This document shows positions 4,617 through 64,000 of a stretch of 64,000 nt of DNA, one piece after another. The DNA comes from Candidatus Saccharimonadota bacterium (GTDB lineage: Bacteria > Patescibacteriota > Saccharimonadia > Saccharimonadales > JAXHMH01). The DNA is taken from assembly GCA_034521515.1 (NCBI GenBank), contig JAXHMH010000002.1, positions 152,379-216,378 of the forward strand, given 5' to 3'. The notes beneath the pieces were generated by a model. That model did no database searches, was not told where the DNA came from, and saw only the letters and a program-made list of their open reading frames with translations. The translations under genes and the position numbers were made by a program. Each line of letters begins with the position of its first letter. Within the stretch, counting starts at the first letter, position 1.

Positions 4617-4665
4617 TGTTTGCTTTTTGTTTGGTTTGAATTGTTTGTGTTGATTTTCGTTTTGG
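4617..4665 (-). promoter_or_regulatory. CA-rich 5' leader without a Shine-Dalgarno motif, directly upstream of the gene A start
   Basis: The minus strand reads ..ACACAAACAATTCAAACCAAACAAAAAGCAAACA-ATG. Equivalent CA-rich tracts precede ATG 19385 (..TAGATCAAAAACAAAACAAAAACAA-ATG) and ATG 54343 (..CCAAAACAAACCAAAAAACAAAAACAA-ATG). None has a GGAGG-like motif. Confidence 0.4.
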
Positions 4666-4977
4666 TGCCTTTACGACGAGGCATGTTTTGTTTTGAAAAT
4701 CATTTTTGTGTTCCAGCCCGGGTTACGAATCCGCGCTTTTTGGATCACGCCTTCAGTATCACCGAGCATCGGTATTGATACAACCCCTTTTCTATAAAAA
4801 ATTTGCTCATTTTTTAAGGCAATGTTTTGCAATATTTTGCAGCAATTTTTGTTGTGTTAATTATTACAGTTTTTTATACGGCCTGTGTTCTTAACACCTA
4901 CAACCTATTGTATTAACTATTACATCCAAAATAATACTGTTGTGTAAATCACAAATTTCTAAAATTTGCCCCAAAAG

Positions 4978-4986
4978 TTATCCACA
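4978..4986 (+). promoter_or_regulatory. TTATCCACA motif (perfect DnaA-box consensus 9-mer), copy 1, about 360 nt upstream of the gene A start
   Basis: aaaGTTATCCACAGcc read directly. It has the same orientation and a similar distal-upstream position as the copies at 19712-19720 and 54630-54638. Confidence 0.5.
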
Positions 4987-5066
4987 GCCATTTTTAAAAA
5001 TGTCTCAACCATTCTCGCATCTCTTACATTTTTTAAACAAAGTGCCCATAAAGCATTCGCTTGTCC

Positions 5067-10634: not shown

Positions 10635-10637
10635 AGC

Positions 10638-19385: not shown

Positions 19386-19711
19386 TTGTTTTTGTTTTGT
19401 TTTTGATCTACACGTTTTTTGTATTTTTGTTTTGGTAGATCTAGGGTTTAGTATGGCGGAATCTGGGTTGTATGACAAGAGGTATTCAAGGGAAAGCAAA
19501 GTCAGGTCTACGACAGCCGACAGACAGTGCAAATATACTGGTTCTTTGTGACATTATAGTTGTGATTTTTACATCCTTAGTTTCCAGATAACGGGGTTAA
19601 ACTGCAGGTTTAAATTAGTGTAGTAGCAAATATAAGATGACATGATATGGATGGGGTCGGTAGCACGCAAACAATGCACTAGCGCCCAAAATTGAACACA
19701 TAATGTATAAG

Positions 19712-43277: not shown

Positions 43278-43977
43278 GCAAAGGTCTGACCTTTGCGAGT
43301 GTTATGTGTCCGCTAGTAAAACTTTTATGCTTTCTAGTTGATGTTTGTGGTCTTCGTAATCCTCAATAAAGTTTTCGTAACTTTCAGTGCCGTCAAAAAG
43401 TTCTAAGATACGTCCTGGCTTCACCCAATCACTACGCCATCCGTTAATGTAATATGGTAAACTCGAGAATTCCCAACTTTTATATGATTCAGGATTAAGG
43501 TGTATGTATCGCGAGATGTGTAAAAGGTATGCATCTTCAAGAATATGAGAAGCCTTATAAACACCTTGGAGCAAATGCCCTACTCTAACGTGCCGCTTAT
43601 TGAAGTATGTTGTATATGAGCTCGTCACTTTTTGCATCATTTTAGCTATAGCTTTTGGATCGGAGTTTAGGTAAAACAACAGGTGGAAATGATTTGGCAT
43701 CAAGCAAAACGCTAACAGCTCAACCCTTTCAGCGTAGCTTTCGTATATATTTCCGCGATCGTCTTTGTGCTCTTCTGGGCTAAGATAACGCTTTAGCAAA
43801 TTCAGAAATACTGCGTAATCTTGATCGTCTATAAAAATATTCCGCTTCTCTACGCCACGGTTGTAAACATGATAAAAAGACTGTTCTACGTACTGCTTTA
43901 CAGCATTCTTCGATGGCATACGTGTAATATACTTGATTCCTACCCCTCTTGCAAAGGTCAGACCTTTGCAAGAGGGG
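43278..43977 (-). mobile_element. RAYT/IS200-like unit: Y1 transposase gene flanked by inverted copies of a type 2 palindrome
   Basis: GCAAAGGTC-t-GACCTTTGC at 43278-43296 lies 6 nt past the stop. CCCCTCTTGCAAAGGTC-a-GACCTTTGCAAGAGGGG at 43943-43977 lies 24 nt upstream of the start. The central t/a difference shows the two copies are mutually inverted. Confidence 0.75.
43302..43919 (-). CDS. REP-associated tyrosine transposase (RAYT) / IS200-like HUH Y1 transposase, 205 aa
   Basis: YHVYNRGVEKRNIFIDDQDYAVFLNLL.., HUH motif in LMPNHFHLLF, and catalytic Tyr context ISRYIHLNP. Confidence 0.85.
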   Translation of the reverse strand: MPSKNAVKQYVEQSFYHVYNRGVEKRNIFIDDQDYAVFLNLLKRYLSPEEHKDDRGNIYESYAERVELLAFCLMPNHFHLLFYLNSDPKAIAKMMQKVTSSYTTYFNKRHVRVGHLLQGVYKASHILEDAYLLHISRYIHLNPESYKSWEFSSLPYYINGWRSDWVKPGRILELFDGTESYENFIEDYEDHKHQLESIKVLLADT

Positions 43978-45864
43978 TAAGGGTTGCTCGGTAGTAGGTT
44001 TTGTTTGCTTTTACTGCTGTTAACAACAGTGTGAGGGGTTAGTTGGTGGTGGTTATGGTGATGTAGTCAAAACGGTAGGTTTTGTTAGGTTCAAGAGGGG
44101 TGTTGGAACCGACTTTAAAGCCGTCGGCTGTGCGTTCTATGTACAGATCTAGCCCGGTACTACCGGCACCTACCGGCATAAGATTGACCCGTGGTATGGC
44201 GTCATCTACCGATTCTGCAAAGAGTACTTTTGCAAGTATTCCCTTCTCTATCTCAACGCCCTCGTTAGTCGTAAAGGTAATTGTTCCGGCCATGTCAGTA
44301 CCCTCTAGATCGACAGAGCCCTTATCGCCCTGCAGTACCCCACCAAGCTCTATAGCTGGTGTCTCGGTTGTGTGGCTGAGTATACGTCCGCCAACGGTTA
44401 GGTTGCTGGTAACGGTGGCGGTTTTAACGGTAAGATTGTTCTCTACCGTTAGGTTGCCTTGGACGGTGGCGTTGCCAGTGACGGTTAGATTAGAGATGAC
44501 GGCTGGGCCAGATACGTTGAGCATCGGCACGCTCAGGGCGTTGCCTTGTAGGTCGCTTACGTCGGTGTCTTGTATGCCTGGTAGGTAGGTTTCTGGTTGC
44601 ATGAACAGTTCAATGGTGCCAATCTCGGTTGGGTCAGTGTTGGTGTAATCTTCCAGAGCATAACCGATGATACGGGTGGCGCTGGTGGCTTTGCGGCCAA
44701 CACCAGGGTGCTCTAGGCTAATGGTTATAGGATCGCCTGCCTTGATGTTGCCGTTCTCGGTGGTGACTTTAACTGGCACACGACCAGCCAGTGCCACCTC
44801 TACTGAATGAGGCGCGTCAGCAAGATCCGGGTTATCTTTCCAGCCCAGGACAAATCCAGGGTCTGTAGAGACAACTCCCATAAGTGGTGCACTGCCGTCA
44901 GCAACCGTTGTATAACGGCTATGGTTAGTATCTGCTGATACGATAGTACCTGGCTCAATCATTTCTGTGGCGCCGTAGAGTTCTGCAATATCAAAGGCGT
45001 TGGCGGTAATTGAACCGTCTGCACGGATTGTACCAGCCGCAGTACTGCAGTCGTCCGCACTGTCGTCACTGACACAGAGCCCGCCCTGCACTTCTAGCGT
45101 GGTGTCGGCACTGGCAGTACCAATACCGACGTAGCCGGTTAAATTATTCACATGCAGTAGTGAGCTCATATTTAGCTCGTGTATTTCTATCTCATCTAAG
45201 GCCATGTCACCTGTAAAGCTAGAGCCTCGGATACCTACAAAGCGGATATCAACAACACCAGAGAGTTCGGATAGGTCTACTGTCTCCTCAAACCACTCAT
45301 CGCCCTGGTCACCACTCATTGACCACTGTTCTTCCCACAGACCGCCGTCTTCCGAGGTTTCTAGACGGAGTTCACCCATACTCGCCCCGTACATATGATA
45401 GTAGAAGCTAATATCAAAGCCGTCAGGATACAAGCTGGTATCAATATTACTGGCGTAGTCAAGAATGGCTTGATCGTCTTGTGCAACTGGATCTGAAGTT
45501 TCGTAGTAAACATACCAGCTCGTGCCGTCCGCGCCACTCGACGGGCCGGTACCAGAGCTTGTTGTGGTGCCACTATTACGTGTCCAGTCCTGGTCATCAC
45601 CGGCAGCGTTCACCCAATCATCAAAACTGGCCTCAAAAGTAGAGTTGCTAATAGTGCTTGCGACAAGCCGGTCAGCTACGTTTAATCCGCCTAACACATC
45701 AAGCTTAGACTGCGGGTTAGCCACACCGATGCCGACGTTGCCGCTATTTGGTTGTAGTAGCAGGTTTTGACCGGACTGGATCTTTGGAACTTCTAGCATG
45801 CCTTGGATGGAAGCGTTAGTAACAACATTCGCAGTCGAGTCAGGTCTGTCTGGTTGTCGAGGAA

Positions 45865-47830
45865 TTTCATGTCGATGGCGGTGAGAGTCGGCGTCGTCAC
45901 TTGCCACGTAAGCATAGGTACCGTCGATGTGGACGCTGCGGGCGCCGTTCAGGTTGGTGGAGGTGTGGCTGCCCAGTTCGGTCAGATTGGCGGGGTCGGA
46001 GATGTCGATGGCGGTCAGGGAGCCGGCATTTCCACTGGCCACGTAGGCGTATGAGCCGTCGATGTGGACGCTGCGGGCGCCGTTCAGGTTGGCGGAGGTG
46101 TGGCTGTCCAGTTCCACCAGGTTATTCGGGTCGGAGATGTCGATGACGGTCAGGGAGTCGGCATACCAGCTGGCCACGTAGGCGTATGAGCCGTCGATGT
46201 GGACGCTGTAGGCGCCGTTCAGGTTGGCGGAGAGTGCGGCCGTCCAGCTCGACCAGGTTGATTCGGGTCGGAGACGCTCGATGACGGCCAGGGAGTCGGC
46301 ATAACAGCTTGCCACGTAGGCGTACGAGGCGGTCGACGTGGACGCTGCGGGCGCCGTCCAGGTTGGCGGAGGTGTGGCTGTCCAGTTCTACCAGGTTATT
46401 CGGGTCGGAGATGTCGATGGCGGTCAGGGAGTCGGCATCCCTGCTGGTCACGTAGGGCGTATGAGCCGTCGATGTGGACGCTGCGGGCGCCGTTCAGGTT
46501 GGCGGAGGTGTGGCTGTCCAGTTCCACCAGGTTACTCGGGTCGGAGATGTCGATGGCGGTCAGGGAGCCGGCAGAATAGCTTGCCACGTAGGCGTATGAG
46601 CCGTCGATGTGGACGCTGTTGGCACCGCCCAGGTTGGCGGAGGTGTGGCTGTCCAGTTCCACCAGGTTACTCGGGTCGGAGATGTCGATGGCGGTCAGGG
46701 AGGCGGCGTATTCGCTGGCCACGTAGGCGTACTGAGCCGTCGATGTGGACGCTGTTGGCGCGGTTCAGGTTGGCGGTGCTGAGGGAGTTTAGTTGTGCGA
46801 ATGAGTTCTGGCGGATCGAGCCGTTGACGTTCAATCGGTTCTGAAACGGTCACTTGACCCCGGGTATGTTTACTGGTGACTCGCGTGATGTCGATGGCGG
46901 TCAGGGAGTCGGCAGTTTCACTGGCCACGTAGGCGTATGAGCCGTCGATGTGGACGCTTTGGGCGTCTTCCAGGTTGGCGGAGGTGTGGCTGCCGAGTTC
47001 GGTCAGGTTACTCGGGTCGGAGATGTCGATGGCGGTCAGGGAGTCGGCGTATTCGCTGGCGACGTAGGCGGTGGTGCCGTCGATGGGACGCTGCGAGCAT
47101 AGTACAGGTTGGCGGAGGTGTGGCTGTCTAGTTCGACCAGGTTATTCGGGTCGGAGATGTCGATGACGGTCAGGGAGTCGGCATTCCTGCTGGCGACGTA
47201 GGCGTATGAGCCGTCGATATAGACGCTGTTAGCACCGTTCAGGTTGGTGGTGCTGATGCTATCCAGCTCTACCAGGTTGGACGGGTCGGAGATGTCGATG
47301 GCGGTCAGGGAGTCGGCATAAAAGCTTACCACGTAGGCGTATGAGCCGTCGATATAGACGCTGTTGGCGCCTTCCAGGTTGGCGGAAGTGTAGCTGTCCA
47401 GCTCTACCAGGTTGGACGGGTCGGAGATGTCGATGGTGGTCAGGGAGTCGGCGTATTCGCTGGCGACGTAGGCGGTGGTGCCGTCGATGTGGACGCTGTT
47501 GGCGCGGTTCAGGTTGGCGGAGGTGTGGCTGTCTGAGCTCGACCAGGTTGGATTCGGGTCGGAGATGTCGATGGCGGTCAGGGAGTCGGCATCCCTGCTC
47601 GCGACGTAGGCGGTATGAGCCGCTCGACTGTGGACGTCGGAGGCGGCGTCCAGGTTGGCGGAGGTGTGGCTGTCTAGCTCGACCAGGTTATTCGGGTCGG
47701 AGATGTCGATGGCGGTCAGGGAGTCGGCATCCCTGCTCGCCACGTAGGCGTATGAGCCGTCGATGTGGACGTCGGAGGCGGCGTCCAGGTTGGCGGAGGT
47801 GTGGCTGTCTAGTTCGGTCATATCGTACCC
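45865..47830 (-). repeat. About 14 tandem 135-bp (45-aa) LVIVD-type beta-propeller repeats (DSLTAIDISDPNNLVELDSHTSANLNGARSVHIDGSYAYVAS..A), several with frameshifts
   Basis: Head-to-tail units read on the plus strand (..cacgtaggcgtatgagccgtcgatgtggacgctg..ggtcggagatgtcgatggcggtcaggg..). Examples of lesions are cacgtagggcg (extra g near 46450) and gtcgatgggacgctg (1-nt loss near 47085). The array is visibly more G+C-rich than the neighbouring core genes (not computed). Confidence 0.8.
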
Positions 47831-48419
47831 CGAACCCTGTGTGTCCACACGGAGAATGTCTGTACTAGTGCTGTTTTGTACGCGCAGGGCGTTGGCGTTA
47901 GGGGTACTAGATTTGAATAACACATCACCGTCAACATCAAGGCTCGCTTGTGGGCTAGAGGTGTTAACCCCAACGCGATTATTCTGCGTATCAGCCGTGA
48001 ATAGATTATCCCCGGCGGCGTTTTGAATTTGGAAGGCGGTGGCGCTGTCTGTTTTCGCTCTGGAACAATACATCGCCTGCTACATGCAGTTTAGCCTGTG
48101 GGTTATCTGTGCCGATTCCCATGTCGCCAGTAAGAGTCATATTGCCAATGAATTCGCTGTCTCCGGCAACCTTTAGTGCGTTCCCTGGTGCGACTTGGCT
48201 GACCATAGCATGGTTACGGTTGTCGCCAAAGTCGCTATCAGAGATTGCTACAAATCTTCCATTTCCATATACAACACCCAGCCACGTACTGGCATCTGCT
48301 GTCACCGTCTCCCACGTAATACCATCAACAGATGTCGCAACATGGGCAGGGGTGCCACCAATTGCATCACCGCTAGCTATCGCAACGAAAGTATTATTCC
48401 CATGGGTTATGGTTAACCA

Positions 48420-50170
48420 GTAAAGCGTGTTAAGTGAAGTGTCTTGGACTGATGTCCAGGTTTCGCCGTCGGAGCTTGTCATAACGCGGTTGGTGCCACT
48501 ATATGCTACGGCTACAAACGTACCGTTGCCGTAGGTGACAGAGCGCCAGCTGTTAGCTTCGGCGGCGGCGTGAGCGGCCAGGTTTCGCCGTCGCTGGAAG
48601 TCATGACACGGTTGGTACCGTCATCAGCTACGGCTACAAACGTACCGTTGCCGTAGGTGACAGAGCGCCAGCTGTCAGCTTCGGCGGCGGCGTGAGCGGT
48701 CCAGGTTTCGCCGTCGGAGCTTGTCATAACGCGGTTGGTGCCACCTACACGCTACGGCTACAAACGTACCGTTGCCGTAGGTGACAGAGCGCCAGCTGTT
48801 AGCTTCGGCGGCGGCGTGAGCGGTCCAGGTTTCGCCGTCGCTGGAAGTCATGACACGGTTGGTACCGTCATCAGCTACGGCTACAAACGTACCGTTGCCG
48901 TAGGTGACAGAGCGCCAGCTGTTAGCTTCGGCGGCGGCGTGAGCGGTCCAGGTTTCGCCGTCGGAGCTTGTCATAACGCGGTTGGTGCCATCGTGAGCAA
49001 CCGCAACAAATGTACTATTACCATAAGCAACGTCACTCCAATCCGCAGGGATGCCTGTATATGGTACCCACGCGGTGCTTGTCATTTCGGCAGCCACATA
49101 CAATCTTGCGTCTGTGGTCTCAGCCGACCCTACTGATAGACTCATGGAGCTTGTGTTCGCGTTAAGTAGCGTACTGTTCCCCGCGGCATTCTGCACGGTG
49201 AAGCTACTCGTAGAGTCTGCTTTTACATTAACGCTGCCATTCAAGCTCGTTCTGCCCTGGACATTCAATGCTAAACCTTCTGAAATGTCACTCGTCATGA
49301 CGCGGTTGGTGCCACTGCTTGCAACAGCGACGAAGCGACCGTTGCCGTACGTAAATGAGTTCCACCAGTTGGCCTCAACAGCGGAATATGGAGTCCAGAG
49401 TAAGGCCGTCTGGGGAGGTCATAACGATACTTTTCGCGGCAATTGCTATAAATGTACCATTTCCATACGCCACATTATCCCACGCATCAAGTTTGCTATC
49501 TGGCGTATTCGCAAACCAGGTTACGCCGTCGGTACTCGTCATAACACGGTCGCTTGACTCACTGCTGCCACCATTCCCTGCTACTGCAACAAAGAGACCA
49601 TCGCCATAGGTGACCGACTGCCAATCATTGTCTACCACGGCAGTCTGAGTAACCCAGCTAACACCGTCAGAACTGGTCATAACGTGATTAGTGCCATCGC
49701 CTGTCACAGCCACATAAACACCATTGCCATAGGTAACTGAGCTCCAGTAGTTGGCTTCAGCGGCGGTACGGGTGGCCGACGTTTCGCCGTCTGGGAGGTC
49801 ATGACGTGGTTGGTGCCACTGCTTGCCACCGCCACAAACTGGCCGTTGCCATAGGTGACGGATTGCCAGCGCCAGCTTCGGCGGCGGTGACGGGGGTGGC
49901 CCAGGTTATGCCGTCTGGGGAGGTCATGACGCGGTGCTGGGGTGCCTTCCCAGGAAACTGCGACGAAGGTGCCGTTGCCGTAGGTGACAGAGCGCCAGCT
50001 GTTAGCTTCGGCGGCGGTACGGGCAGTCCATGTTTCGCCGTCTGGGGAGGTCATGACGCGGTTGGTGCCACTGCTTGCGACGGCCACGAAGATGCCGTTG
50101 CCATAGGTGACGGATTGCCAGCTGTTAGCTTCGGCGGCGGTACGGTGGTCCCCACGTTTCGCCACCGGTA
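48420..50170 (-). repeat. About 14 tandem 123-bp Asp-box-like blade repeats, the same family as 11800-13735, interrupted by frameshifts
   Basis: Fragments translate to ..WRSVTYGNGTFVAVADDGTNRVMTSSDGETWTAHAAAEANS.. across four or more different ORF pieces. Confidence 0.8.
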
Positions 50171-53100
50171 CCATACGTAAAGCTTGTTGCATCTACGTTT
50201 AATCGTGCTATCGGATTATTGCTGCCAATCCCAACACTCATATTCTGAGTATCGGCAGTAAACAGGCTGGAACCAGAAGTATTTTGAATCTGGAAAGCTT
50301 CTGTGGTATCAGTGCCGTTCTGAATCACTACACCGCCGGTTGTACTCCCTAATACAAGGTTGTTGGTCTGGTTATCAAAGTGCATGGTGCCGTAGTTAGT
50401 GCTGTCTGTGCCTACCTTGATGGTGGATGAGGCTTCGAGGACACCGGTCTTAACACTGCGGCTACCCAGGCCAGCTCGTGGGGTGTACTCAGTCGTGTCA
50501 TCGGCTATGCCGTTAAAGCTGACCCAGCCGTAGTTCTCGCTCCAGGCGTAGCCGGTGTATTCACCGGTGTCTGGGTCGTGAGTGACACCACCGTCGGTTG
50601 GGTCCAGGTTAATCCAACCAGTAGCGGTGTTCCAGGCAAAGCCGGATAGTTCACCGGTGGTTGGGTTACGGTTGACACCGTAGTCTGTTTCATCTGTGTT
50701 GGCGTAGGTGTGCTCACCGCCTCCTGTGTATGTACCAAAGCTAATCCAGCCGGTGGTTTCGCCCCAGGCCATGCCTTCTAGGTGGTCTGGGTAGACGCGG
50801 ACGTCATACATCGTGCCAGGCTCTAGGTTAATCCAGCCAGTTGCAGCACTCCAGACGTAGTGATGTTCGCCGTCTGAGGTTGGGGAGACGTCTACTTCCC
50901 CACCAGTGAACTTTGGTGCGTGAACGGTTGTGGTGACTCTGCACCTCTTCTTTGGTGGTGTCGTAGCCGAGGGTAGGCGTCGTTGCCATGACTGTGCCAA
51001 TGTTGCATGGAGTTTGGCACGGACGTAGACGTCTTGCCGACGGTTGGTGCTCGGAGCCAAGGTCGTAGGTGTCATCCGCGCTTGGTCGTAGGATTAGAGT
51101 TAATACCGGCGTTTACTGTCAGTGTGTTAGATGAGTTGGTGCCAAGTACCGTATTACCGTCTACGTCTACGTTGGTAGTAAAGCTGCCTCCGGCCGGTTA
51201 CATCAAGATCACCGCCGGCTAGAATAAGATCGTTGCTGGTGTCTAGGGTAAGTGTGCCGGTGCCTTGGAGGAGTGTGGAGTCAACCACGTTCTGAGCAGC
51301 GTCGAACATAGCTAGACGGTTGGCGGTGCCAAGAGCCGGTGACTAGGCTACCACCGTCACTCGAAGTCACCCGTAGTTATTTGTGTGCCGTTAACCCGGT
51401 AGACGCCGGTTGTGTTTACATCTCCGTCGACATCCAGGGTGTATTGTGGGCTGATGACTGGAGCCATGGTCGACTCTGAGGTGTGGGCGTTGGTGGTGCC
51501 GACTCGCATCGTAGACTGTGGGGCGTGCTGGTGCCGAACTGGTGGTGTACCAGGGGAGTACCAGCGTGAGGCGCCGTCAACTGGTGGTACCGGGCCGACT
51601 TAGCTGCATTGGTGGGGAGATGGAGCCGTTTGAGCGTCGTTGGAGCCGGATCGTTATAGCGGACAGCTGACTGCTGGTGCCATGATGGTAGCAGTCGGCA
51701 GCATCAGCCATCAGGCGAGCCTGCACGCCTGCGGCGTTTTGGATTTGGAAGGCGGTGGTGGAGTTGGAGGGTGTCGAGTAGGGCTTCGCCGGTATTCAAC
51801 GGCTTAAGACTGTATGGTCTGTGGCGAGGAGTTCTAGCCGTAATTGTCCTGGGCGCTGTGACTCGTTTGCACCGAATGTGTCACCACCTTGACTGATGTT
51901 GCCACTGGTATCTGTGACACAATCTAGCCAGGCACCGTTTTCGTAGCAACGGAAGGTGTTGGACGTGGTATCGTAGTACGTGGCGCCGTTGACGCCGGTT
52001 GGGAGAAGAGTCAGAACCAAGCACAAGGGCAGTGCCAAACAATCGATATACGATTATTAGTGGTGTTAGCGGTAAGAGATTGGTAGTACCTGCGGCGTTT
52101 TGGATTTGGAAGGCAGTTGTAGAGTCTGTTTGGTTCTGGAATAGAGCTTGGCCGGCGACATCTAAGCCAGCATCTATAGCAACGGTTGAACCTGATTGGC
52201 TTATCAATGAGTCTATAACGGTGTTGTTATCATCAAACACTGGGATAGTGCCGGCAGTACCTGTGCCTACTGCCCAAGAAACATGAATACTGCCATCGCC
52301 CTCATTTCCTACCTCCACACCCATACCGGCGGGTACAAGCGATGACCCGCCGCCACCGCCGCCGCCACTATAAGTGCTTCCACCAGAGTCACCGGCACCG
52401 CCACCGTAATAACCGCCGCCACCGCCGCCACCGGCTGTATAACTAGTACATGTTGGGCAAGCATCGCCACCTACACCAAGTACACCATCTTCGCCATCGC
52501 CGTTGCCGGCACCACCTTCAGTTTGCGTACCTCCCTCGCCAGGATAACCACCATTCTGGCCAGCTTGTCCATTATGGTCACCGCCATGTCCGCCGTATTT
52601 ATTACCGTACCAGCCACTACCGCCGCCGCCGCCACCAGCAACCACGATACGATCGGTTAAGCCCGTACCTCCGCGACGTATATCGGTTGCACCACCACCG
52701 CCACCGCCAGTACGAAAATCGCTGTAACTATCTCCTCCACCGTTCCAGCCACCTGTAGGCGTACCTCCCGCGCCTCCTACGTAAAAATACAACGTCTCTC
52801 CTGGCGTAACATCCATGGTGCCAGATACAATTGCACCATCGCCGCCTCCAGTACCACTTTCAGCTGATACACCCCCTTCAGCACCTCGTAATTCAACAAA
52901 AATCTCGGTAACGCCAGCTGGTACGGTAAACTGTTGCATAGCCGACACGGACTCAAAAGTTTGACTACCAGCCTCTCCCGGAGTTAATACAAACGTACCT
53001 GTCGTATTGGGTAGTAAGTATGCCTGATCTGCAGTCAATGTAGCCGATTGTATGGTCGCACCGTTATTACTGAACCCGTCACCCAGCGTCAACAGGCCTT

Positions 53101-54629
53101 GCGTAACTGTGCCACTACTAGCAATTCTACCTAGTGTCAACCGTGCACCTGTTTCATTAAACGACGCGTTGACATTGCCGTCGCTATCTTGCAGCTGTAA
53201 TAAATCGGCGGTTTGTCCTGATGTGCCCTGCACAAGCAGGCCAGTATTGGTGCTTCCGCCTGTGGCAAGCGCGGTCTGAGCCGAGCTGTCAGCAGTGGAA
53301 AGCGTGTTTACACTGAGCGTGTTTGCCGGAGCAACGTTATTTATGCCTACCTGCCCGGTGTTTGAGACGGTCATACGGATGGTGTCGTTCGTCTTGATAT
53401 TCACATCACCGTCATTAACGGTACCGAGTACCATGGCAACGCTGCCGCCAAGATCATTGCCCCCTTGCAATATATCGCCGTAGCCTGCGGTGCCCCCTAT
53501 ACAATTGCCGGCAAACGTACAGACATTGTCACCGCTTTGCTGCAAGGTGCCGGTAAAGTTGGCCGTGGTGGCGTCATACAGTGCCACGTTCGAGCTTAGT
53601 CTGGCATCGGCCAGGGTGCCGGTGGTGATGTTTGTCGCGTGAAGGTCGGTCAGGCCGGAGCCGTCGCCCTCAAAGCTGCCGGCAATGATGGTGCCGGTGA
53701 GGTTGATGTGGCCGGTTTGGGGAGTGCCTGGAGTGGAGGCTTGTAGTAAAGCAAGCGTCCCACTGGCATCAGGTAGCAGAATTGATGGGTCGTTGGTGAT
53801 GGAGCTGAAGTTGAGGCTGCCGCGGTTGGTGCCGTCGTCTTGGTTGAGCTGGCCGGCACTTAGGGCGTGGGGTATGGCGGTTAGTTTGATTCTGGGGGTC
53901 ATCTCACCATCCCAGGTGGGAGAGCCAGTACCGCCGATGTTCATACTGAGCCATAGGTCTTGGTCCCAGTTGATGTCTGGCAGGCTGGTGACGGAACCCA
54001 GGTTGACGCTGAAGTAGCCGTTTCTAACCGTGACTTGGTCAGTGCTGGTGCGGGTTTCGCGCCAGGCACAGCTGCCGGAACAGCTGCCTTGGGCGCCACC
54101 AGTGTTGGTGGCATGATCGTGTAGTTTGAATTCTAGGTTGTAGGTGCCGTCAGGGACTATGTTGCCGGCACTGTTGTACAGACGGGCTTGGAAGTTGAGG
54201 TATTCACTAGTGGCGGCAGAGGTGGATTGCAGGGGTGGAATTAGGATTGACCAAACAAACAAAAACAGCACAAACAATAGCCCTGAGAGCCAGAGCTTGG
54301 CTGTGTTGAAAGGTAGGCGGTGTGACCGCTGTTTTTGGAACATTTGTTTTTGTTTTTTGGTTTGTTTTGGTTTTTTGTTTAAAAACCGTGACTTCATTAT
54401 CCTTCACTTAACAGATAGTATCAAGGGTGAATGTACACATAATTAACTCAATTATAAATCAATTATTTTTATCAAATTAATATAATTATATGTTGTTATT
54501 AGTACTACTACATCGACCTTTCTTACCTGTTTTTGTATAAAATATACTGTACGTATAATTGTTTTTATATATAAAATATTGATGTATTTATAACTACTAC
54601 ACTATAATTTCATAGAATTATTGTAATGG

Positions 54630-55291: not shown

Positions 55292-55301
55292 TATTCTATA
55301 A

Positions 55302-55413
55302 TTTGGCGCCGTGCTATTTTCCCAGGGGTGAACCCCAAGTATTGTAACCGCTGCGAGGCTTAACTGCTGTGTTCGGCATGGGAACAGGTGTCTCCCTCGC
55401 GCTATGGGCACCA
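55302..55413 (-). rRNA. rrf: 5S ribosomal RNA (about 112 nt)
   Basis: The minus strand reads TTGGTGCCCATAGCGCGAGGGAGACACCTGTTCCCATGCCGAACACAGCAGTTAAGCC..GGGAAAATAGCACGGCGCCAA. It has the conserved CCCATGCCGAAC..GTTAAGC core, and helix I pairs the two ends. Confidence 0.93.
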
Positions 55414-55428
55414 ACGACGACAGTCGTT

Positions 55429-55490
55429 GAGTTAAAAGTGAAAAGTAACAAGTTAAAAGTCTTTATACCTTAAAACTTTAACACTTTGTA
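55429..55490 (-). repeat. AU-rich hairpin element, family 2, in the 23S-5S spacer
   Basis: agttaaaagtgaaaagtaacaagttaaaagtctttataccttaaaactttaac.. is homologous by eye to the 23S insertion at 59797-59868 (shared aagttaaaag..ctttata..ttaaaacttta). Confidence 0.6.
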
Positions 55491-55654
55491 CTCGCGCCGA
55501 CAGGCGCTTGTTGATGTCCATTTATATCATTTGTGATAATACGGCAATTTAGCCGTATATCATTCGTGATGTATCGCACGTCTGATGTGAAATGTTAAAG
55601 CCCTTCGACAATGCTCAGGGCAGGCAAACCCAGCTAAAATTCTTGAGACTCCGT

Positions 55655-55794
55655 AATCTGATTACAGACTACTTCGCTCAGGAATTTCTACTGGACAGGC
55701 ATGGTGTGTGATACACACCAACAACTAGTCAATCCCCGCACCAAAGTCTTGATGCTACACAATCTGGTTACAGACTGCTTCGCTACAGGATTTT
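55655..55794 (-). repeat. Two ~33-nt direct repeats in the 23S-5S spacer
   Basis: aatctgattacagactacttcgctcaggaattt (55655-55687) and aatctggttacagactgcttcgctacaggatttt (55761-55794). Confidence 0.7.
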
Positions 55795-55964
55795 GTGCGG
55801 GATAAATGCACTTTCCTCCATAACGATCAGGCTTATGCAGATAAACTGCGACCTGATTGTTATGGTCGTAAAAAGTCAATGGGACTATTAGTACTTCTCA
55901 CCTCAATGCGTCACCGCACTTTCAGTTAAAGCCTATCAAACTGATCGTCTTTCAGTGTCCTCTA

Positions 55965-56131
55965 GGAGCCTGCCTGCAAAACTTACTCTGGCTAAAACCA
56001 GTATATTTTGGGCTGCAAAATATAAAATGTTCGTCAACGTACCTTATAGGTATGCATCCTCGCATTTTAACTTTTTCGCTCCAAAATCTACCAAGTTTTA
56101 CCTTGATAAGTAAGCCTTACAGGCAGGCTCC
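55965..56131 (-). other. 167-nt hairpin insertion in 23S at the helix-98-equivalent site, closed by 12-bp perfect inverted repeats
   Basis: GGAGCCTGCCTG (55965-55976) and CAGGCAGGCTCC (56120-56131). The flanks align by eye with E. coli ..TCCCTGAC..|..GAAGACGACGACGTTGATAGGC. Confidence 0.7.
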
Positions 56132-56245
56132 AGGGAAATCTAATCTTGGGTGAGGCTTCGCGCTTAATATGCTTTCAGCGCTTATCCTTTCCGCACATAG
56201 CTACCCAACCATGCCATTGGTATGACAATTGGTACACCAGCGGTG

Positions 56246-56277
<32 letters not shown>

Positions 56278-56330
56278 CTCCCCTCAAATTTCCTATCGTC
56301 CACAGCGGATATAAACCGAACTGTCTCACG

Positions 56331-57133
56331 CGTGTACATCTTAAGGTGTTCATGTCTTAAGACTTATCCTCCATTACTGAAGGCACGGACTATATCTTCA
56401 CCCTTCTTTATGTATTAAAGTTAGGGGCTGACGTATTATAGGTCACTGGTTGTGAGTCCTATCTCTCTGTCTGGTCTAGTGACAGATCAGTCTCTACGGG
56501 GACAAGTAAGCCACGCTCCTGCAAAAAAGTGATGACTTGTGCGTATCCGTTAGTGCGTTTCTTTGAATAGTTAAATGTAGCGGTCTTATCGACCAGCTCA
56601 CTTAACCGCACCAACCTTCTGGCGGTCATTTTTCGTTGCTCGGGATGTTGTTTGATTAATCTCAAGACATCTCTAGCGAGCACTTTTTTGAGTCGAAGAA
56701 AGGGATACAGAAGCAACAATACATGTTCTACTTCTCTTAAGCCGACTATGGTGTATTCGCTCATCCCGTCAGGGCGTCGGCGAACATATCCGTAGCCTAG
56801 CTGCTCCTTCAGCCAAAGGAGAAAATCTTGATGGTTTGTTTTCTGGTAGAAAACAACACTAACTCTAATCTGAAAACCCAATCGATAATCCTTGCGGCTT
56901 ATCAATTGCGCCATAATTGAGCCATCTCCATCTAAGAATCCAGCTATGTAGGCCTTTTCTTCATCTTGCATGGTCATTACTGTCTTCCCTCGGTATTGCC
57001 CTCTGGATCGTTCGTTTATCCAGGTGGGGTTTCACCGATATTAGTCAGATTTAGTGTTTTTTTCGCTATAAAGCGAAGATGCGATGTACATCAACACATT
57101 ACCACTTTTCAGTGGTAGAACGCAATGTAATTT
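56331..57133 (-). mobile_element. Group I intron (about 803 nt) in 23S inserted after the U2593 equivalent (the I-CreI-type site)
   Basis: The conserved exon GGGTTCAGAACGT ends at 57134 and resumes as CGTGAGACAGTTCGG at 56330. The 5' exon ends in U and the insert ends in G, as expected for group I. The insert contains a LAGLIDADG ORF. Confidence 0.8.
56459..56977 (-). CDS. Single-motif LAGLIDADG homing endonuclease (I-CreI-like), 172 aa, intron-encoded
   Basis: KAYIAGFLDGDGSIMAQL.., size and context. This is the only convincing ORF within the rRNA genes. Confidence 0.88.
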   Translation of the reverse strand: MTMQDEEKAYIAGFLDGDGSIMAQLISRKDYRLGFQIRVSVVFYQKTNHQDFLLWLKEQLGYGYVRRRPDGMSEYTIVGLREVEHVLLLLYPFLRLKKVLARDVLRLIKQHPEQRKMTARRLVRLSELVDKTATFNYSKKRTNGYAQVITFLQERGLLVPVETDLSLDQTER

Positions 57134-57141
57134 ACGTTCTG

Positions 57142-57188
<47 letters not shown>

Positions 57189-57202
57189 AAGATGCTCCAC
57201 CT

Positions 57203-57237
<35 letters not shown>

Positions 57238-57269
57238 AGCGCCGTCTATGTGAACTATTGGGCGCTATA

Positions 57270-57301
<32 letters not shown>

Positions 57302-57519
57302 GTGCGTCGTCGATCCCACGTTCATGTACAAATGTACGTACGACGGGTCACTAGCTCCCACTTTCGTGTCTGTTTGGCTCGTAGGCCTCACAGTCAAGCT
57401 GGCTTATGCGCTTGCACTATCAGTTCGATTTCCATCCGAACTTAGCCAACCTTTGAACGCCTCCGCTACTCTTTAGGAGGCAACCGCCCCAGTTAAACTA
57501 CCCACCAGACACTGTTCCC

Positions 57520-57650
57520 GAACCGGAAATTACCAACAATTTCCGGTTCAGTTAACGGCTGACAGTATACAGACAACAGTCTTTAAACTGTTTACTGTTA
57601 ACCATCTACTGTTAACCTGCGGAAAATTGTTAACAATTTTCGGCTCAGGT
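57520..57650 (-). other. ~130-nt insertion in 23S domain V built from hairpins
   Basis: AACCGGAAATTaccaacAATTTCCGGTT and CGGAAAATTGTTAACAATTTTCGG hairpins lie between conserved GAAATACCACCC and GGAACAGTGTCTGGTGGGTAGTTT. Confidence 0.6.
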
Positions 57651-57769
57651 GAGTACAAGATCGTAACAAGGGTGGTATTTCACCGGTGGCTCCACCTACG
57701 CTAGCGCGTAGGCTTCAAAGCCTCCCACCTATCCTACACATGTTACGACCCGGCACAATGTCAAGCTGT

Positions 57770-57801
<32 letters not shown>

Positions 57802-58771
57802 GCGGACAGACGGCATCTTTACCGTCAATGCACTTTCACCGAGCTCTTCGTCGAGACAGTGCCCAAATCATTACTCCATTCGTGCGGGTCAGAACTTACC
57901 TGACAAGGAATTTCGCTACCTTAGGACGGTTATAGTTACCGCCGCCGTTCACTGGGGCTTCAGTTCGCACCGTGAAGCGCTCCCCTTAACCTTCCAGCAC
58001 CGGGCAGGAGTCAGCCCCTATACATCCACTTTCGTGTTAGCAGAGACCTGTGTTTTTGGTAAACAGTTGCTTGGGCTCCTTAGCTGCGGCCCCGTCACAC
58101 TATCTACCACGATAGTGCCCTTTTGTAGGGGTCAGCTTCCTTCTGATTTGTTTGTCTCGAGTATTACTCGTTTATACAGGTCCTTGCAAGAAGTTAAAAA
58201 CTTGCATGAACTACTGTTTTGATCTCGTTTTCAAAAGAAAACTGGCTTTACATGTCACACGTGATAAACACTGTGACGGGGCAGACCTTATCCCGAAGTT
58301 ACGGTCGCTGTATTGCCGAGTTCCTTGACGAAGATTCACTCGTACGCCTTGGTCTTCTCGACCTGAGCACCTGTGTCGGTTTGCGGTACGGATAGCCATG
58401 CACATAAGTTTGGAAGCTTTTCTGGTCAGCACTCTCACAAGAATCAGCCTGTTAAGGCCTCTCATTCGTGGTTGTTACGCCACTTAGACGGGTATAACCA
58501 TGAACCCGCTCCTGCTAACATGCCGCGCACTCCAAACAATACAAGACTAGTACGGGAATATTAACCCGTTGTCCATCGCCTACGCTACGCGCCTCGGCTT
58601 AGGACCGACTAACCCTGGGACGATTACCGTGGCCCAGGAAACCTTGCTCTTTCGGCGGGCAGGATTCTCACCTGCCTTATGGTTACTCATTCCAACATTC
58701 TCACTTGATACCGCTCCACCAGACCTTACGATCTAACTTCAGCGCAATATCAACGCTCCTCTACCGCTCGC

Positions 58772-58901
58772 GCGATGCGCAAGAAACTCCAGAAACCAAA
58801 AACCAAAATTCAGAGAAAGACCAAAAATCAAAGATTTGAAAATTGAAGTTGAGACTTATCTGAAATTTGAAGTTTGAGGTTTGAAATTTCTTGCGCATCG
58901 C
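58772..58901 (-). other. 130-nt IVS-like hairpin in 23S (helix-45-like site) closed by 15-bp perfect inverted repeats
   Basis: GCGATGCGCAAGAAA (58772-58786) and TTTCTTGCGCATCGC (58887-58901). The interior consists of CAAA/TTTG-rich complementary arms. Confidence 0.7.
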
Positions 58902-59518
58902 ACAAGCCCATATCTTCGGTGCTATGCTTTAGCCCCGTTACATTTTCCGCGCGAGATCTCTTGACGAGTGAGCTGTTACGCACTCTTTAAATGAATGGCT
59001 GCTTCTAAGCCAACATCCTCGTTGTTTAAGAAATCTCACCTCGTTTCCCACTTAGCATAGACTTGGGGACCTTAGATGATGGTCTGGGCTGTTTCCCTTT
59101 CGAGCGCCGAGCTTAGCCCCGGCGTTCTGACTGCTGTAGTTCCACTGATGGTATTCGTAGTTTGTCAAGGGTGGGTACGATCACTCGCCCCAGTCCGAAA
59201 CAGAGCTCTACCCCCATCAGCTACCGTACAACGCTAGCCCTAAAGCTATTTCGAGGAGAACCAGCTATCTCCAGGTTCGATTGGCATTTCACCGCTAACC
59301 ACAGGTCATCCGAGCATGTTGCAATATGCGACGGTTCGGTCCTCCACGTAGTTTTACCCACGCTTCAACCTGCCCATGGTTAGGTCACCTGGTTTCGGGT
59401 CTACTCCGCATAACTAAATCGGCCTATTCAGCCTCGCTTTCACTACGCCTCCGTCAAATGACTTAGGCTTGCTATGCAGAGTAACTCGTTGGATCGTTCT
59501 ACAAAAAGCACGCCGTCA

Positions 59519-59602
59519 CCCTGCAGTAGACTTTCGATCAGTTTTGCTACGCAAAACCGTATCCATTCGCAAAGCGAATGGCATCGAAAGCTCACTGCAG
59601 GG
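59519..59602 (-). other. ~84-nt extension of the helix-25-equivalent hairpin of 23S
   Basis: CCCTGCAGT (59519-59527) and ACTGCAGGG (59594-59602) close an extra hairpin where E. coli has a short helix (GGGAGCACGCTTAGGCGTGTGACTGCG). Confidence 0.55.
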
Positions 59603-59665
59603 CTCCGACTCCTTGTACGCACACAATTTCAGGTTCTATTTCACTCCCCTTCCGGGGTTCTTTTA

Positions 59666-59696
<31 letters not shown>

Positions 59697-59789
59697 ATCG
59701 TAAGATATATTTAGCCTTGGGACGTGGTCGTCCCGGATTCAGTCAGGGTTTCACGTGTCCCGACCTACTCGACATACGGCTCGCGCTTT

Positions 59790-59878
59790 GCACGAGCAAG
59801 TTAAAAGCCGAAAGTTAAAAGTTAAAAGCCCTAAGACTTTATACTTTAAAACTTTATATACTTTTCACTCGCTTGTGC
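59790..59878 (-). repeat. AU-rich hairpin insertion, family 2, in 23S domain I
   Basis: gcacgagcaagttaaaagccgaaagttaaaagttaaaagccctaagactttatactttaaaactttatatacttttcactcgcttgtgc. It is homologous to the spacer element 55429-55490 and lies just 5' of the conserved ..GAGTAGGTCGGGACACGTG. Confidence 0.65.
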
Positions 59879-60134
59879 TCCGCACAAGCCCTACAAATAT
59901 AAGGTTAGCGAGACTTGGCATACCGGGCTTTCACCGTCTCTGGCGGAACTTTCCAATTCCTTCTGCTCGCCTCGCTAATTTCTGACCTTATGCAGACTAA
60001 TGGTAGCGTCTGCAGCCTTATGCAAAGACTGAATAAATTCAGTTCCTGCAAAAGGTTGTTTGTAGTGTCACAACCCCCATTATGCATTAGCCTACCAGCC
60101 TTACCGGCTGCATCTCGCTTCGCTCGAGCTAATG

Positions 60135-60209
60135 CAATAGATGATAGTTGATAGATGATAGTTGATAACAAATGTCATTAACTATTAACTATTTTCCTAT
60201 TAACTATTG
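60135..60209 (-). repeat. AU-rich hairpin insertion, family 1, in 23S domain I
   Basis: caatagatgatagttgatagatgatagttgataacaaatgtcattaactattaactattttcctattaactattg. The ends CAATAG../..CTATTG are complementary. It is homologous to the 16S insertion at 63829-63904. Confidence 0.7.
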
Positions 60210-61141
60210 CTCTAGCTTGTCGAACAAAGTGAGACACAGCTGGAGCATAAAAGGTTTGGGCTCTTCCGCGTTCGCTCGCCACTACTAACGGAATCGTTGT
60301 TTACTTTCTCTTCCTCGAGGTACTAAGATGTTTCAGTTCCCCCGCTTACCGCCATATAGCCTATGAATTCAACTATAGGTGACTAGACATGACTCTAGCC
60401 GGGTTTCCCCATTCGGAAATCTTCGGTTCAAAGCTTAGTCAGCAGCTCCCCGAAGCTTATCGCAGCTCCTCGCGTCCTTCATCGGTATCTTACGTCAAGG
60501 CATCCTTTGTGTGCGCTTGTGTAACTTTTTACGATTCCACAACTTGTAACACTTTAGCCTACCGTCCAGCAAAGCTGGCCGCACTGCTAAAGCTCTTGAG
60601 GTATTGCTTTGTCAGAAACTGTGCTACTCCTTCACCGTATTAATATACGGCACAGTCCGTTGCTTGTTTCTTCCGTGCACTGCACTCAAGTACGAAGTTA
60701 TGGGTCATTAAGTGCAATCCTTCTTCGCTTCCAAAGGAAGCTACGAAGGACCGTTCATAGCCTAAAAGGCGACGAACGGTTGACTAGTTGTTGGTAATTA
60801 CCAACTACTCACAACTTCGCATCGCGCTGACTGCTCGCCAGCAGAGCTGCCGATCTGTCATCACTTTTGGCGCATCACTGCGTCAGTTACTCCGATACTC
60901 GCTCACCGTACTATTAGTACGACTCGCTCCGTTTCTCATAACTTCCTTGTGCTGCATCCAAATGCAATAGTTGTGTTGCCGTTTGCCTTATTTCTCATTT
61001 CTTTACATCAGATTGTTAAGATACAAACTCAAGACATCCCCACTGTAAGAATATATCTTGCTGCGTATAGAACTTGAGTTTACGTTTCTGGCTTGGCGGT
61101 TTAGACGTCAAACAAATGACCTAAACTCAAGCAGCCAGAAC

Positions 61142-61170
61142 ATCTTATCACCATTAACAGAGGCGGTCAA
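61142..61170 (-). promoter_or_regulatory. Possible sigma-70-like promoter for 23S-5S (TTGACC, 17 nt, TAAGAT)
   Basis: The minus strand reads gggTTGACCgcctctgttaatggtgaTAAGATgttctg. It would give a ~600-nt hairpin-rich leader. Weak evidence. Confidence 0.25.
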
Positions 61171-61291
61171 CCCTATTCTGCTGTAAAACTTCCTACAACT
61201 TAACTCCTAAAACAGTGTGTTTACTCGCACAAAGACGGTTGGCTTGTCTTATTCCTCCGTTTACGCTAGAATTACCGGAGTAATTTTGCAT

Positions 61292-61368
61292 GGGGCAATA
61301 GCTCAGTTGGCTAGAGCACCTGCTTTGCAAGCAGGGGGTCCGGGGTTCGAGTCCCCGTTGCTCCACCA
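61292..61368 (+). tRNA. tRNA-Ala (anticodon UGC), CCA encoded
   Basis: GGGGCAATAGCTCAGTTGGCTAGAGCACCTGCTTTGCAAGCAGGGGGTCCGGGGTTCGAGTCCCCGTTGCTCCACCA. It has the G3:U70 pair, anticodon loop tTTGCAa and GTTCGAGTC T-loop. Confidence 0.95.
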
Positions 61369-61456
61369 AAAATTACACTCAAACAAGGCCGGTCGGCTAA
61401 GTTGGCCGGAGAGCGTTACCGAGGATATACTTTTACAAACATTGAGTTTTTCTGAT

Positions 61457-61533
61457 GGGGCTATAGCTCAGTTGGTTAGAGCGCGTCACTGATAATGACG
61501 AGGTCGATGGTTCGAGTCCACCTAGCCCCACCA
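61457..61533 (+). tRNA. tRNA-Ile (anticodon GAU), CCA encoded
   Basis: GGGGCTATAGCTCAGTTGGTTAGAGCGCGTCACTGATAATGACGAGGTCGATGGTTCGAGTCCACCTAGCCCCACCA. Confidence 0.95.
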
Positions 61534-61562
61534 AAAATATTCAATATATTGACTTCAAGCGT

Positions 61563-61593
61563 AGCGCCTAATGACGAGGTCGATGGTTCGAGT
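61563..61593 (+). other. Truncated duplicate of the tRNA-Ile 3' half (pseudo-tRNA fragment)
   Basis: agcgccTAATGACGAGGTCGATGGTTCGAGTaactc. 25 nt (61569-61593) are identical to tRNA-Ile positions from the 3' anticodon stem to the T-loop. The 3' T-stem and acceptor are missing. Confidence 0.8.
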
Positions 61594-61616
61594 AACTCAT
61601 TTGCCCACAAATTAAA

Positions 61617-61640
61617 ACATCCTATATAGGGTGTTTTTTA
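61617..61640 (+). terminator. Rho-independent terminator after the tRNA pair
   Basis: ACATCC-tatata-GGGTGT followed by TTTTTT. Confidence 0.7.
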
Positions 61641-61647
61641 ACTACAG

Positions 61648-61992
61648 CTAGATAACAGTTACTACAACTATAAAAATCACTGCTATATGCAGTGCTTGAT
61701 CAACATGAATACCGTATAGCCCCTCTTCCTTGCCTAATTTTTTGTGCAGCCACTTTGATGCTTTGCCAAAATCAATTAACCAGTGAGCCGACCCAATGAT
61801 AGCTGCTGCCAAAATACTGCCTGATAATAGTCCCGCAATTATCGCGTGAATAAACGCATGAGAGGTCAAAGCATGTATGCCCATAGGGTCAAGGAATATG
61901 AGTTGCTTTTTGGCTGCCATATGCTGACTCTGTAGACCAAAGTCCGCTAGGTAGTGCCCTGCGATCAACGTAAGTAGTAGTACAAAATCCAT
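61648..61992 (-). CDS. Small integral membrane protein (114 aa), DUF3307-like
   Basis: MDFVLLLTLIAGHYLADFGLQSQ.. (H.LADF.LQ motif recalled for DUF3307), with 3-4 hydrophobic helices. Confidence 0.6.
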   Translation of the reverse strand: MDFVLLLTLIAGHYLADFGLQSQHMAAKKQLIFLDPMGIHALTSHAFIHAIIAGLLSGSILAAAIIGSAHWLIDFGKASKWLHKKLGKEEGLYGIHVDQALHIAVIFIVVVTVI

Positions 61993-62032
61993 AAAGCCCC
62001 CATTGCCTGTCCGTCTAAGTATACACCGGAAC

Positions 62033-62072
62033 TAAAAAGAGCCCATCTCGCAATGTTGGGCTCTTTTCTTTT
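62033..62072. terminator. Bidirectional terminator between the 16S trailer and the membrane-protein gene
   Basis: AGAGCCCA-tctcgcaatgt-TGGGCTCT (62038-62064), with AAAAA on the left and TTTCTTTT on the right. Confidence 0.65.
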
Positions 62073-62262
62073 CGCTATACAGCGAACGGCTTCTCGTCTC
62101 ATTTTACTGAGAATTTGGTCTCTTCCTCGGGAAGAGCAGCCGGAGCGTCGGATTTATTCCGCGCGCCACGCGATGAGAAACCCTGAAAGGGTGTCTCATA
62201 CCCGTTAAAAACCTAAGTAGTGCAAATCGAACGTCATATTCGGGTACAGAACTGCTATCTTG

Positions 62263-62361
62263 CCCCTCACCACTTCCGTTGACAATCCTTCGCTTTTGAA
62301 AGTATGGCCATAAGGACATATCTTCCAAGCATTTAAGATTTTCACTAGAAGTGGTGAGGGG
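62263..62361. other. 14-bp perfect long-range inverted repeat enclosing 71 nt in the 16S trailer (candidate structured RNA)
   Basis: CCCCTCACCACTTC (62263-62276) and GAAGTGGTGAGGGG (62348-62361). Confidence 0.4.
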
Positions 62362-62520
62362 AAACGTACATTGCCAGTACTGTGTTTACAATGTACCAAG
62401 ATCGACCTAGCTAAAGCCTATCGGCTAGTCGTTAGTCGCCGGTCGCTAGTAGCTAGAAAAACTAGTGACTAGAGACTTTTGACTAGAGACTAACCAAGCT
62501 TCGCTTGGTTTTCTCCCTAG

Positions 62521-64000
<1,480 letters not shown>

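Follow-up and report, generated by a model that had tools for sequence, protein, structure and literature searches.

The window analysed here is a stretch of 64,000 nt of contig JAXHMH010000002.1 (positions 152,379 to 216,378; all coordinates below are those of the window), a 706-kb contig from a metagenome-assembled genome (MAG) of a Candidatus Saccharimonadota bacterium. It carries two paralogous genes for modular surface proteins, which we name C and D, both on the minus strand, whose 5' parts are alike over about 2.9 kb apart from sharply bounded divergent segments, the largest of which encodes a glycine-rich domain (GRD). The two loci are the following:

10638-19532, minus strand: paralogue C, an intact open reading frame (ORF) for a giant surface protein of 2964 amino acids, with a probable start at the ATG at 19385.
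51881-54397, minus strand: paralogue D, an ORF of 838 amino acids in the longer form that starts at 54397; from the ATG at 54343 (MFQKQ...) the frame runs to the stop at 51881.
44039-51749, minus strand: 3' remainder of the D locus, not colinear with C and with at least 19 frame changes.

The NCBI entry for D is MDZ7744330.1, a 'glycine rich domain-containing protein' of 838 amino acids. In C, an N-terminal signal anchor and a conserved domain are followed by a beta-rich stalk, the GRD, beta-propeller-like repeats, a MAM domain and WxSVTYGNG (EPTP-like) repeats. Many Saccharibacteria proteins begin with the domain located after the signal anchor, at 35-65% identity. D possesses an upstream region, a start codon and a signal anchor of its own, and promoter-like hexamers lie upstream of both genes, yet they are not commoner than in shuffled sequence. 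C and D lie as direct repeats at a distance of 35 kb, an interval that contains ileS among other housekeeping genes. A crossover between the two repeats would delete those 35 kb including ileS, so that presumably only non-reciprocal, conversion-type products would be viable.

A global nucleotide alignment of C and D, inspected with a 60-nt sliding window, rendered an identity profile that is clearly not flat. The shared tract begins ca. 16 nt before the start codon (ATG at C 19385, D 54343) and ends at C 16502 / D 51750; the regions upstream of the start of homology are unrelated. Identity is 93-100% from C 19397 / D 54355 to C 18800 / D 53758; after a large gap there is a short dip to 73-80%, and then 90-100% as far as C 17740 / D 52985. 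It amounts to 56-79% across C 17717-17054 / D 52960-52291, and is back at 83-100% up to C 16510 / D 51760. A penalised multi-change-point segmentation of the alignment resolved the tract into five blocks, for which synonymous divergence (dS), nonsynonymous divergence (dN) and their ratio (ω) were calculated by the Nei-Gojobori method (NG86) on the codon alignment:

D 53760-54368 / C 18802-19410, minus strand: block 1, signal anchor and conserved Saccharibacteria N-terminal domain; mismatch 4.6%, dS 0.17, ω 0.05.
D 53633-53759 / C 18801-18393 (contains the indel), minus strand: block 2, a 127-nt patch in D with 25% mismatch and dS 0.57, which encodes LQASTPGTPQTGHINLTGTIIAGSFEGDGSGLTDLHATNITTG.
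D 52952-53632 / C 17709-18392, minus strand: block 3, beta-rich stalk region; mismatch 4.8%, dS 0.19, ω 0.05.
D 52256-52951, minus strand: block 4 in D (D cassette), predicted to be a complete ALK/LTK-type glycine-rich (TG) domain.
C 17019-17708, minus strand: block 4 in C (C cassette), the paralogous glycine-rich domain, with 35% nucleotide mismatch and 55-65% amino acid identity to the D cassette.
D 51750-52255 / C 16502-17018, minus strand: block 5; mismatch 7.3%.

An earlier reading of the DNA made from its letters alone (the sequence-only reading) had proposed a mosaic of identity between C and D with the glycine-rich domain as a divergent cassette, and both proposals are borne out: mismatch runs from block to block as 4.6%, 25%, 4.8%, 35% and 7.3%, and the 35% block matches the glycine-rich domain exactly (C 17708-17019, D 52951-52256). 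The clustering of the differences is significant and the breakpoints are sharp (ca. ±10 nt). A two-breakpoint likelihood scan placed the breaks at C 17708 / D 52951 and C 17018 / D 52255, with intervals of 2 log-likelihood units of only 13-14 nt. Mismatch is 35% inside these breakpoints and 6.8% outside; the log-likelihood ratio is 144, whereas the highest value in 100 permutations was 10.3. Both breakpoints fall at the borders of the domain.

The second departure from near-identity lies at the large gap, whose counterpart in C is the following:

C 18507-18788, minus strand: a block of 94 codons (282 nt) present in C, which D is without.

Details of the sequence-only reading needed some correction in this part. 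The two differences it noticed in the first ca. 190 amino acids (STG/SAG and RGT/RGS) are correct, although there is one more (I/L) just before the indel; the extra block is indeed present in C and absent from D, although with 94 codons rather than ca. 104 amino acids; and near-identity does not resume directly after the indel, where the patch at D 53759-53633 intervenes. This patch adjoins the site of the 94-codon gap in D and ends at a conserved NITTGTLADARL motif, and the borders of the indel are formed by a short LQ/LQ codon repeat (CTGCAAG ... CTACAAAG). A third member of the family, encoded at 3-4670 and used as an outgroup for the indel patch, is equidistant from C and D (76-77%). In other homologues from Saccharibacteria, the linker after the N-terminal domain exists in both short (D-like) and long forms. 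A derived deletion or replacement in D would be mildly favoured by the LQ/LQ microhomology and by the missing Cys-linker in D. The 3' end of the shared tract is located, in turn, inside a repeated family motif, AFQIQNAAG, two copies of which are found in D at 52089-52125 and 51728-51764. From the edges of the tract and the borders of the indel, it is a reasonable inference that motifs shared among the modules of the family may guide recombination.

Both cassettes exceed the gathering score (24.5 bits) of the Pfam family PF12810 (ALK_LTK_GRD), the D cassette with 74.0 bits over profile positions 12-199 of 243 and the C cassette with 53.9 bits over positions 13-196. With an alignment of 61 sequences as input, AlphaFold2 modelled the D cassette at a mean predicted local distance difference test score (pLDDT) of 92.9 and a predicted template-modelling score (pTM) of 0.91. 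When this model was compared with the PDB by Foldseek, the top 21 matches were LTK/ALK TG/GRD structures, with expect values (E) of 6e-9 to 8e-6 and template-modelling (TM) scores of 0.44-0.55, the best being 7nx1 (E 5.9e-9, query-normalised TM 0.54). The next structural matches were the tail tip of mycobacteriophage Bxb1 and the fibre of cyanophage Pam3 (9D93, 7YPX). No direct sequence match to solved structures was obtained, the likeness to LTK/ALK having emerged via the fold search. Judged by these matches, the predicted fold would combine the TNF-like beta-sandwich and the glycine-rich, polyglycine-type subdomain of the ALK/LTK TG domain (PF12810; 7NX1, 7NX4, 7LS0, 7N00), which both cassettes resemble in their Pfam match and the D model also in fold. 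Unlike ALK and LTK, the bacterial cassettes sit in membrane-anchored surface proteins without a kinase, and their identity to ALK/LTK is 18-24%.

What has been exchanged is thus an entire domain, with a fold that serves in the binding of ligands or receptors. In ALK and LTK, the TG domain binds the cytokine ligand. By analogy with these receptors and with the phage fibre and tail-tip matches, the cassettes may have a binding function, and the phage matches in particular suggest a role in cell-surface recognition. The GC content of third codon positions (GC3) is 0.64 in the N-terminal domain, 0.54-0.64 in the flanks, and 0.38-0.39 in the two GRD cassettes, which are T-rich.

In the flanks, dS is 0.17 (N-terminal), 0.19 (middle) and 0.23 (in-frame downstream part), with ω of 0.05, 0.05 and 0.16, respectively; in the cassette dS rises seven-fold, to 1.22, with dN of 0.32 and ω of 0.26. 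To guard against misalignment of Gly runs, fourfold third positions were also compared in codons for the same amino acid, with Gly excluded; 23 of 204 such sites differ in the flanks (11%) and 16 of 35 in the cassette (about 46-51%; Fisher p=6e-6). Moreover, the first 60-nt window inside the 5' boundary consists of non-repetitive beta-strand sequence (FVVPAGITELFVDVRGA vs FTVPAGVTEIFVELRGA) and is already just 57% identical, so that the step is not an artefact of aligning Gly runs. The step in synonymous divergence points to blocks of different age, and therefore to a recombinational mosaic and not to focused diversification by point mutation. As judged from these sites, the cassette is anciently diverged and the recombination mosaic is real. 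In the part of the tract that is frameshifted in D, dS (0.176) equals that of the other flanks (p=1), and equal dS across all the flanks, with the frameshifted part included, suggests a single event for them.

Three mechanisms had been offered in the sequence-only reading: cassette exchange, gene conversion, and focused diversification of the Gly-rich module. The first two are supported by the step in dS from ca. 0.18 to ca. 1.2 and by the sharp boundaries at the domain limits; the third is not supported, given the ω of 0.26 and the lack of an adenine bias. Hyper-diversification of the module in situ, without recombination, could proceed by positive selection, by a diversity-generating retroelement (DGR) or by slippage hypermutation. 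The divergent block does coincide with the putative ligand-binding domain, GGN-rich DNA is prone to slippage, the alignment of the cassettes contains eight in-frame indels, and Patescibacteria are rich in DGRs. Such a process, however, would raise dN and leave dS unchanged, whereas dS is up seven-fold with an ω of just 0.26; fourfold sites in conserved non-Gly codons are near saturation; and it is the whole 690-nt domain that diverges, not a short variable region. We consider this explanation very improbable. A DGR was rejected on the mismatch spectrum, which is balanced, with A making up 25-27% of the mismatches in either copy. No template repeat or extra copy of the GRD was found within the window, a reverse-transcriptase gene not having been searched for exhaustively. 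An inverton, shufflon or other invertase-type system was discarded as well, since no inverted repeats or invertase-type sites flank the cassette and the copies are in direct orientation.

Relatives of the two genes were sought in a database of 5.8 billion proteins, in GTDB species genomes and in metagenome contigs of the Joint Genome Institute (JGI). The protein searches listed matches up to ca. 1.75 times the length of the query, so that GRDs embedded in other giant proteins may be missed. No strain-level relatives of C or D were found across these three sources, the closest relatives having ca. 50-65% identity limited to the N-terminal domain of ca. 200 amino acids. Of the 91 genome and metagenome loci that were fetched, none carries a GRD after the conserved N-terminal domain. 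These searches yielded no third sequence in which both flanks and cassette are colinear, and an exact-sequence contig look-up for D gave no match. Among the matches listed, external homologues of either cassette reach 38-55% identity at most, mostly over the first ca. 100 residues. The C and D cassettes are reciprocal best hits among the 341 proteins collected, with an amino acid identity of 52-58% by BLAST and 65% by global alignment, and each of them is nearly as close to GRDs of other phyla as to its counterpart.

Downstream of the cassette the state of D changes. The return of identity described in the sequence-only reading is found, at 83-100%, but D is homologous to C in a continuous manner only down to ca. 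52075, where a 1-nt deletion breaks the frame of D; the last ca. 65 amino acids of the 838-amino-acid ORF are out of frame, and the tract reaches 51750 only if frameshifts are allowed. From ca. 52075 downward, eight deletions of 1-2 nt are seen over 335 nt when D is compared with C, all of them in D, while the 1471 nt of upstream flank contain no frameshift at all (P ca. 6e-16 at the downstream rate). In the frameshifted part dN is 0.061, versus 0.009-0.010 upstream (6.6-fold, p=1.6e-5), and ω is 0.35. The contrast in frameshifts and dN indicates real relaxed constraint on the 3' part of D together with continued purifying selection on the part that encodes anchor, stalk and GRD. A truncated GRD-tipped D protein of ca. 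760 amino acids is thus probably still made.

The 3' remainder of the D locus contains WxSVTYGNG repeats, 135-nt LVIVD tandem repeats, a MAM domain and a distinct C-terminal domain. One block in it is shared with C (C 11167-11670 / D 50450-50954), with 88% nucleotide identity, dS 0.63 and ω 0.05; this dS represents a third depth of divergence, so that the C/D mosaic extends beyond the 5' tract. The LVIVD units, of beta-propeller type, form a tandem array at 45869-47816 in which copies are 80-87% identical, with a GC content of ca. 61% and many small indels between them. Directly downstream of the end of the D locus lies an ORF for an IS200-like Y1 transposase (PF01797, 33.7 bits; 43302-43919, minus strand). 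The 3' 8 kb of D are either a decaying giant gene or a badly polished region of the MAG; C, with similar repeats, is intact.

It could also be the case that the D locus, in whole or in its 5' end, represents a consensus in which strain variants or reads of paralogues were collapsed or joined into a chimera, and that mosaic and frameshifts alike result from mis-assembly. The source is a MAG, the 1-2-nt deletions in the 3' region of D are dense and all in D, and tandem repeats are present there. However, the flanks differ by 4-5%, mostly at synonymous positions and with ω of 0.05, whereas either identity or random error would be expected from reads that were collapsed or chimeric. The cassette forms an intact domain and is modelled with high confidence, C shows no frameshift over 2964 codons in spite of comparable internal repeats, the region after the frameshift has an excess of nonsynonymous substitutions and not indels alone, and the neighbouring housekeeping genes and rRNAs are intact. 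An artefact of this kind is thus unlikely.

The observations show the block structure, the step in dS, what domain the cassette is, and the difference in constraint between the 5' and 3' parts of D; from them we infer a mechanism and a direction of recombination, as well as a role in host or substrate binding. C and D would be old, differently built members of a family of paralogous, modular, membrane-anchored surface proteins. A single and fairly recent non-reciprocal recombination, by gene conversion or partial duplication, would have made their 5' 2.9 kb alike at a time corresponding to a dS of ca. 0.18. The GRD (dS ca. 1.2) and the 127-nt patch by the indel (dS ca. 0.6) would have an older history than the rest of the tract: a double crossover in the conserved flanks may have replaced them at a later time, the donor being a diverged allele or paralogue, or they may have escaped homogenisation, an identity of ca. 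62% being too low for pairing. As a consequence of the exchange of a whole ligand-binding domain, the two genes would display alternative binding heads on the same stalk. Later on, the 3' 8 kb of D would have been lost to frameshifts, while the 5' part for anchor, stalk and GRD was kept under purifying selection. Taken together, we regard these steps, with a recombination mosaic of the 5' tract, a divergent GRD and decay of the 3' part of D, as the likely explanation of the locus.

A variant of this explanation, in which the order of events differs, is that the paralogues, each with its GRD, arose by a duplication at dS >1 and that only their flanks have evolved in concert, conversion having acted on both sides and skipped the GRD, either because strand exchange fails at an identity of ca. 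62% or because the two heads are kept different by selection. Elsewhere the two genes are old and rearranged (the block at C 11167-11670 has dS 0.63, the MAM domains have 44% amino acid identity and the repeats ca. 75%), which makes the 95% identical flanks the anomaly. The cassettes being reciprocal best hits also fits this variant, as does the unusual GC3 that both share (0.38-0.39, versus 0.54-0.64 in the flanks). It requires, however, two or three conversion tracts of the same age (dS 0.17, 0.19 and 0.18-0.23) or one discontinuous tract, and we hold it to be quite possible, though not the history we would expect.

Several points weigh against the explanation preferred here, namely that of a recent non-reciprocal exchange between old paralogues. 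A mutational hot spot in GGN-rich DNA could inflate dS in the cassette, but the sharp step in non-Gly sequence speaks against such a local effect. The ratio of indels to substitutions in the 3' part of D is high (8 to ca. 26) and every indel is a deletion in D, so that some of the frameshifts could be errors in the MAG consensus. The analysis rests on two sequences, C and D, so that polarity and timing of the exchange are tentative, and no strain-level relatives that could provide population evidence for it were found in the databases searched. Furthermore, cassettes in other giant proteins may have been missed owing to the limit of 1.75 times the query length on the matches listed.

Other features of the window were recorded in the vicinity of the two genes:

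3-4670, minus strand: third family member, which runs off the left end of the window; >1556 amino acids, with a C-terminal CBM_4_9 domain.
5067-10634, minus strand: a surface protein of 1855 amino acids with Kelch repeats and of laminin-G type, whose gene starts 4 nt before the stop codon of C.
55301-64000, minus strand: rRNA operon, with 16S at 62521-64000+, 23S at 57065-60531 and 5S at 55301-55415.
56459-56977: a LAGLIDADG-type ORF (172 amino acids, motif IAGFLDGDGS) between the 3' end of the 23S gene and the 5S gene.
61292-61533, plus strand: tRNA-Ala and tRNA-Ile, called between 16S and 23S on the strand opposite to the operon.
61648-61992: an ORF for a membrane protein of 114 amino acids, also in the 16S-23S spacer.

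The N-terminal domain of the third family member is 34% identical, and the protein holds a copy of the TPGTxQTGxINxxGT...NITTGTLADARL module with 76-77% nucleotide identity to C and to D. The 4-nt spacing between C and the gene at 5067-10634 makes these giant genes look co-transcribed. The GC content of the giant surface-protein genes (1-19500 and 44000-54400) is 51-61%, with C-rich third positions, and that of the housekeeping genes is ca. 44-46%. The 23S match extends over 3467 nt, versus 2925 nt in the model, which implies one or more insertions of ca. 540 nt.

Block-wise variation of dS has been described in the giant1-5 genes of Apilactobacillus kunkeei, where it is attributed to short intragenic recombination tracts and where N-terminal binding domains are exchanged (PMC12863079). 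As with C and D, there are several very long genes for extracellular proteins in a small genome, dS varies in blocks, and near-identical segments are found between copies (PMC12863079). C and D differ from that system in belonging to Saccharibacteria, in their ALK/LTK-type GRD, LVIVD, MAM and EPTP-like repeats, in being two paralogues of one genome, and in the partial decay of one copy.

Cassette variation by gene conversion is also known for other surface and receptor-binding proteins, such as Neisseria pilE/pilS, Borrelia vlsE, Anaplasma msp2, Mycoplasma MgPa, and the host-range cassettes of phage tail fibres. C and D resemble these systems in having conserved flanks around a divergent binding segment, in the non-reciprocal exchange between copies of one genome, and in one copy being partly non-functional. 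In contrast to these systems, D is not a silent cassette of the promoter-less kind, a single alternative cassette can be seen, the divergence of the flanks (4-5%) means that exchange is not ongoing at high frequency, and there is no evidence of programmed switching. A programmed system with a silent donor cassette was rejected, since D comes with a 5' region, an ATG and a signal anchor of its own and the 4-5% divergence of the flanks argues against frequent exchange. By analogy with the known systems, it can still be imagined that this epibiotic Saccharibacterium has a two-locus system for the variation of host recognition, in which near-identical flanks would be kept as recombination substrates, allowing the ALK-like heads and the indel module to pass from one copy to the other, with C as the intact giant adhesin and D as a reservoir that is truncated and in part decayed. 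We consider this doubtful; if true, such a system would change the host cell or the surface ligand that is bound, as cassette switching does in phage tail fibres.

A literature search on gene conversion in Saccharibacteria rendered nothing specific. Mosaic surface-protein genes are common in bacteria, and since recombination mosaics in paralogous genes of this kind are well known, the present one comes as a modest surprise in general evolutionary terms. Saccharibacteria live as obligate epibionts, and, to our knowledge, how they recognise their hosts is largely unknown. The locus indicates that the exchanged unit of giant surface proteins in Saccharibacteria can be a whole ALK/LTK-type GRD, carried on a conserved anchor and stalk. 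The preservation by selection of the part of D comprising anchor, stalk and GRD after the rest of the gene decayed makes the GRD a candidate determinant of specificity, of which two natural variants are available. The main interest of the finding would thus reside in an ALK-like GRD as a putative exchangeable binding head in the surface proteins of an epibiont.

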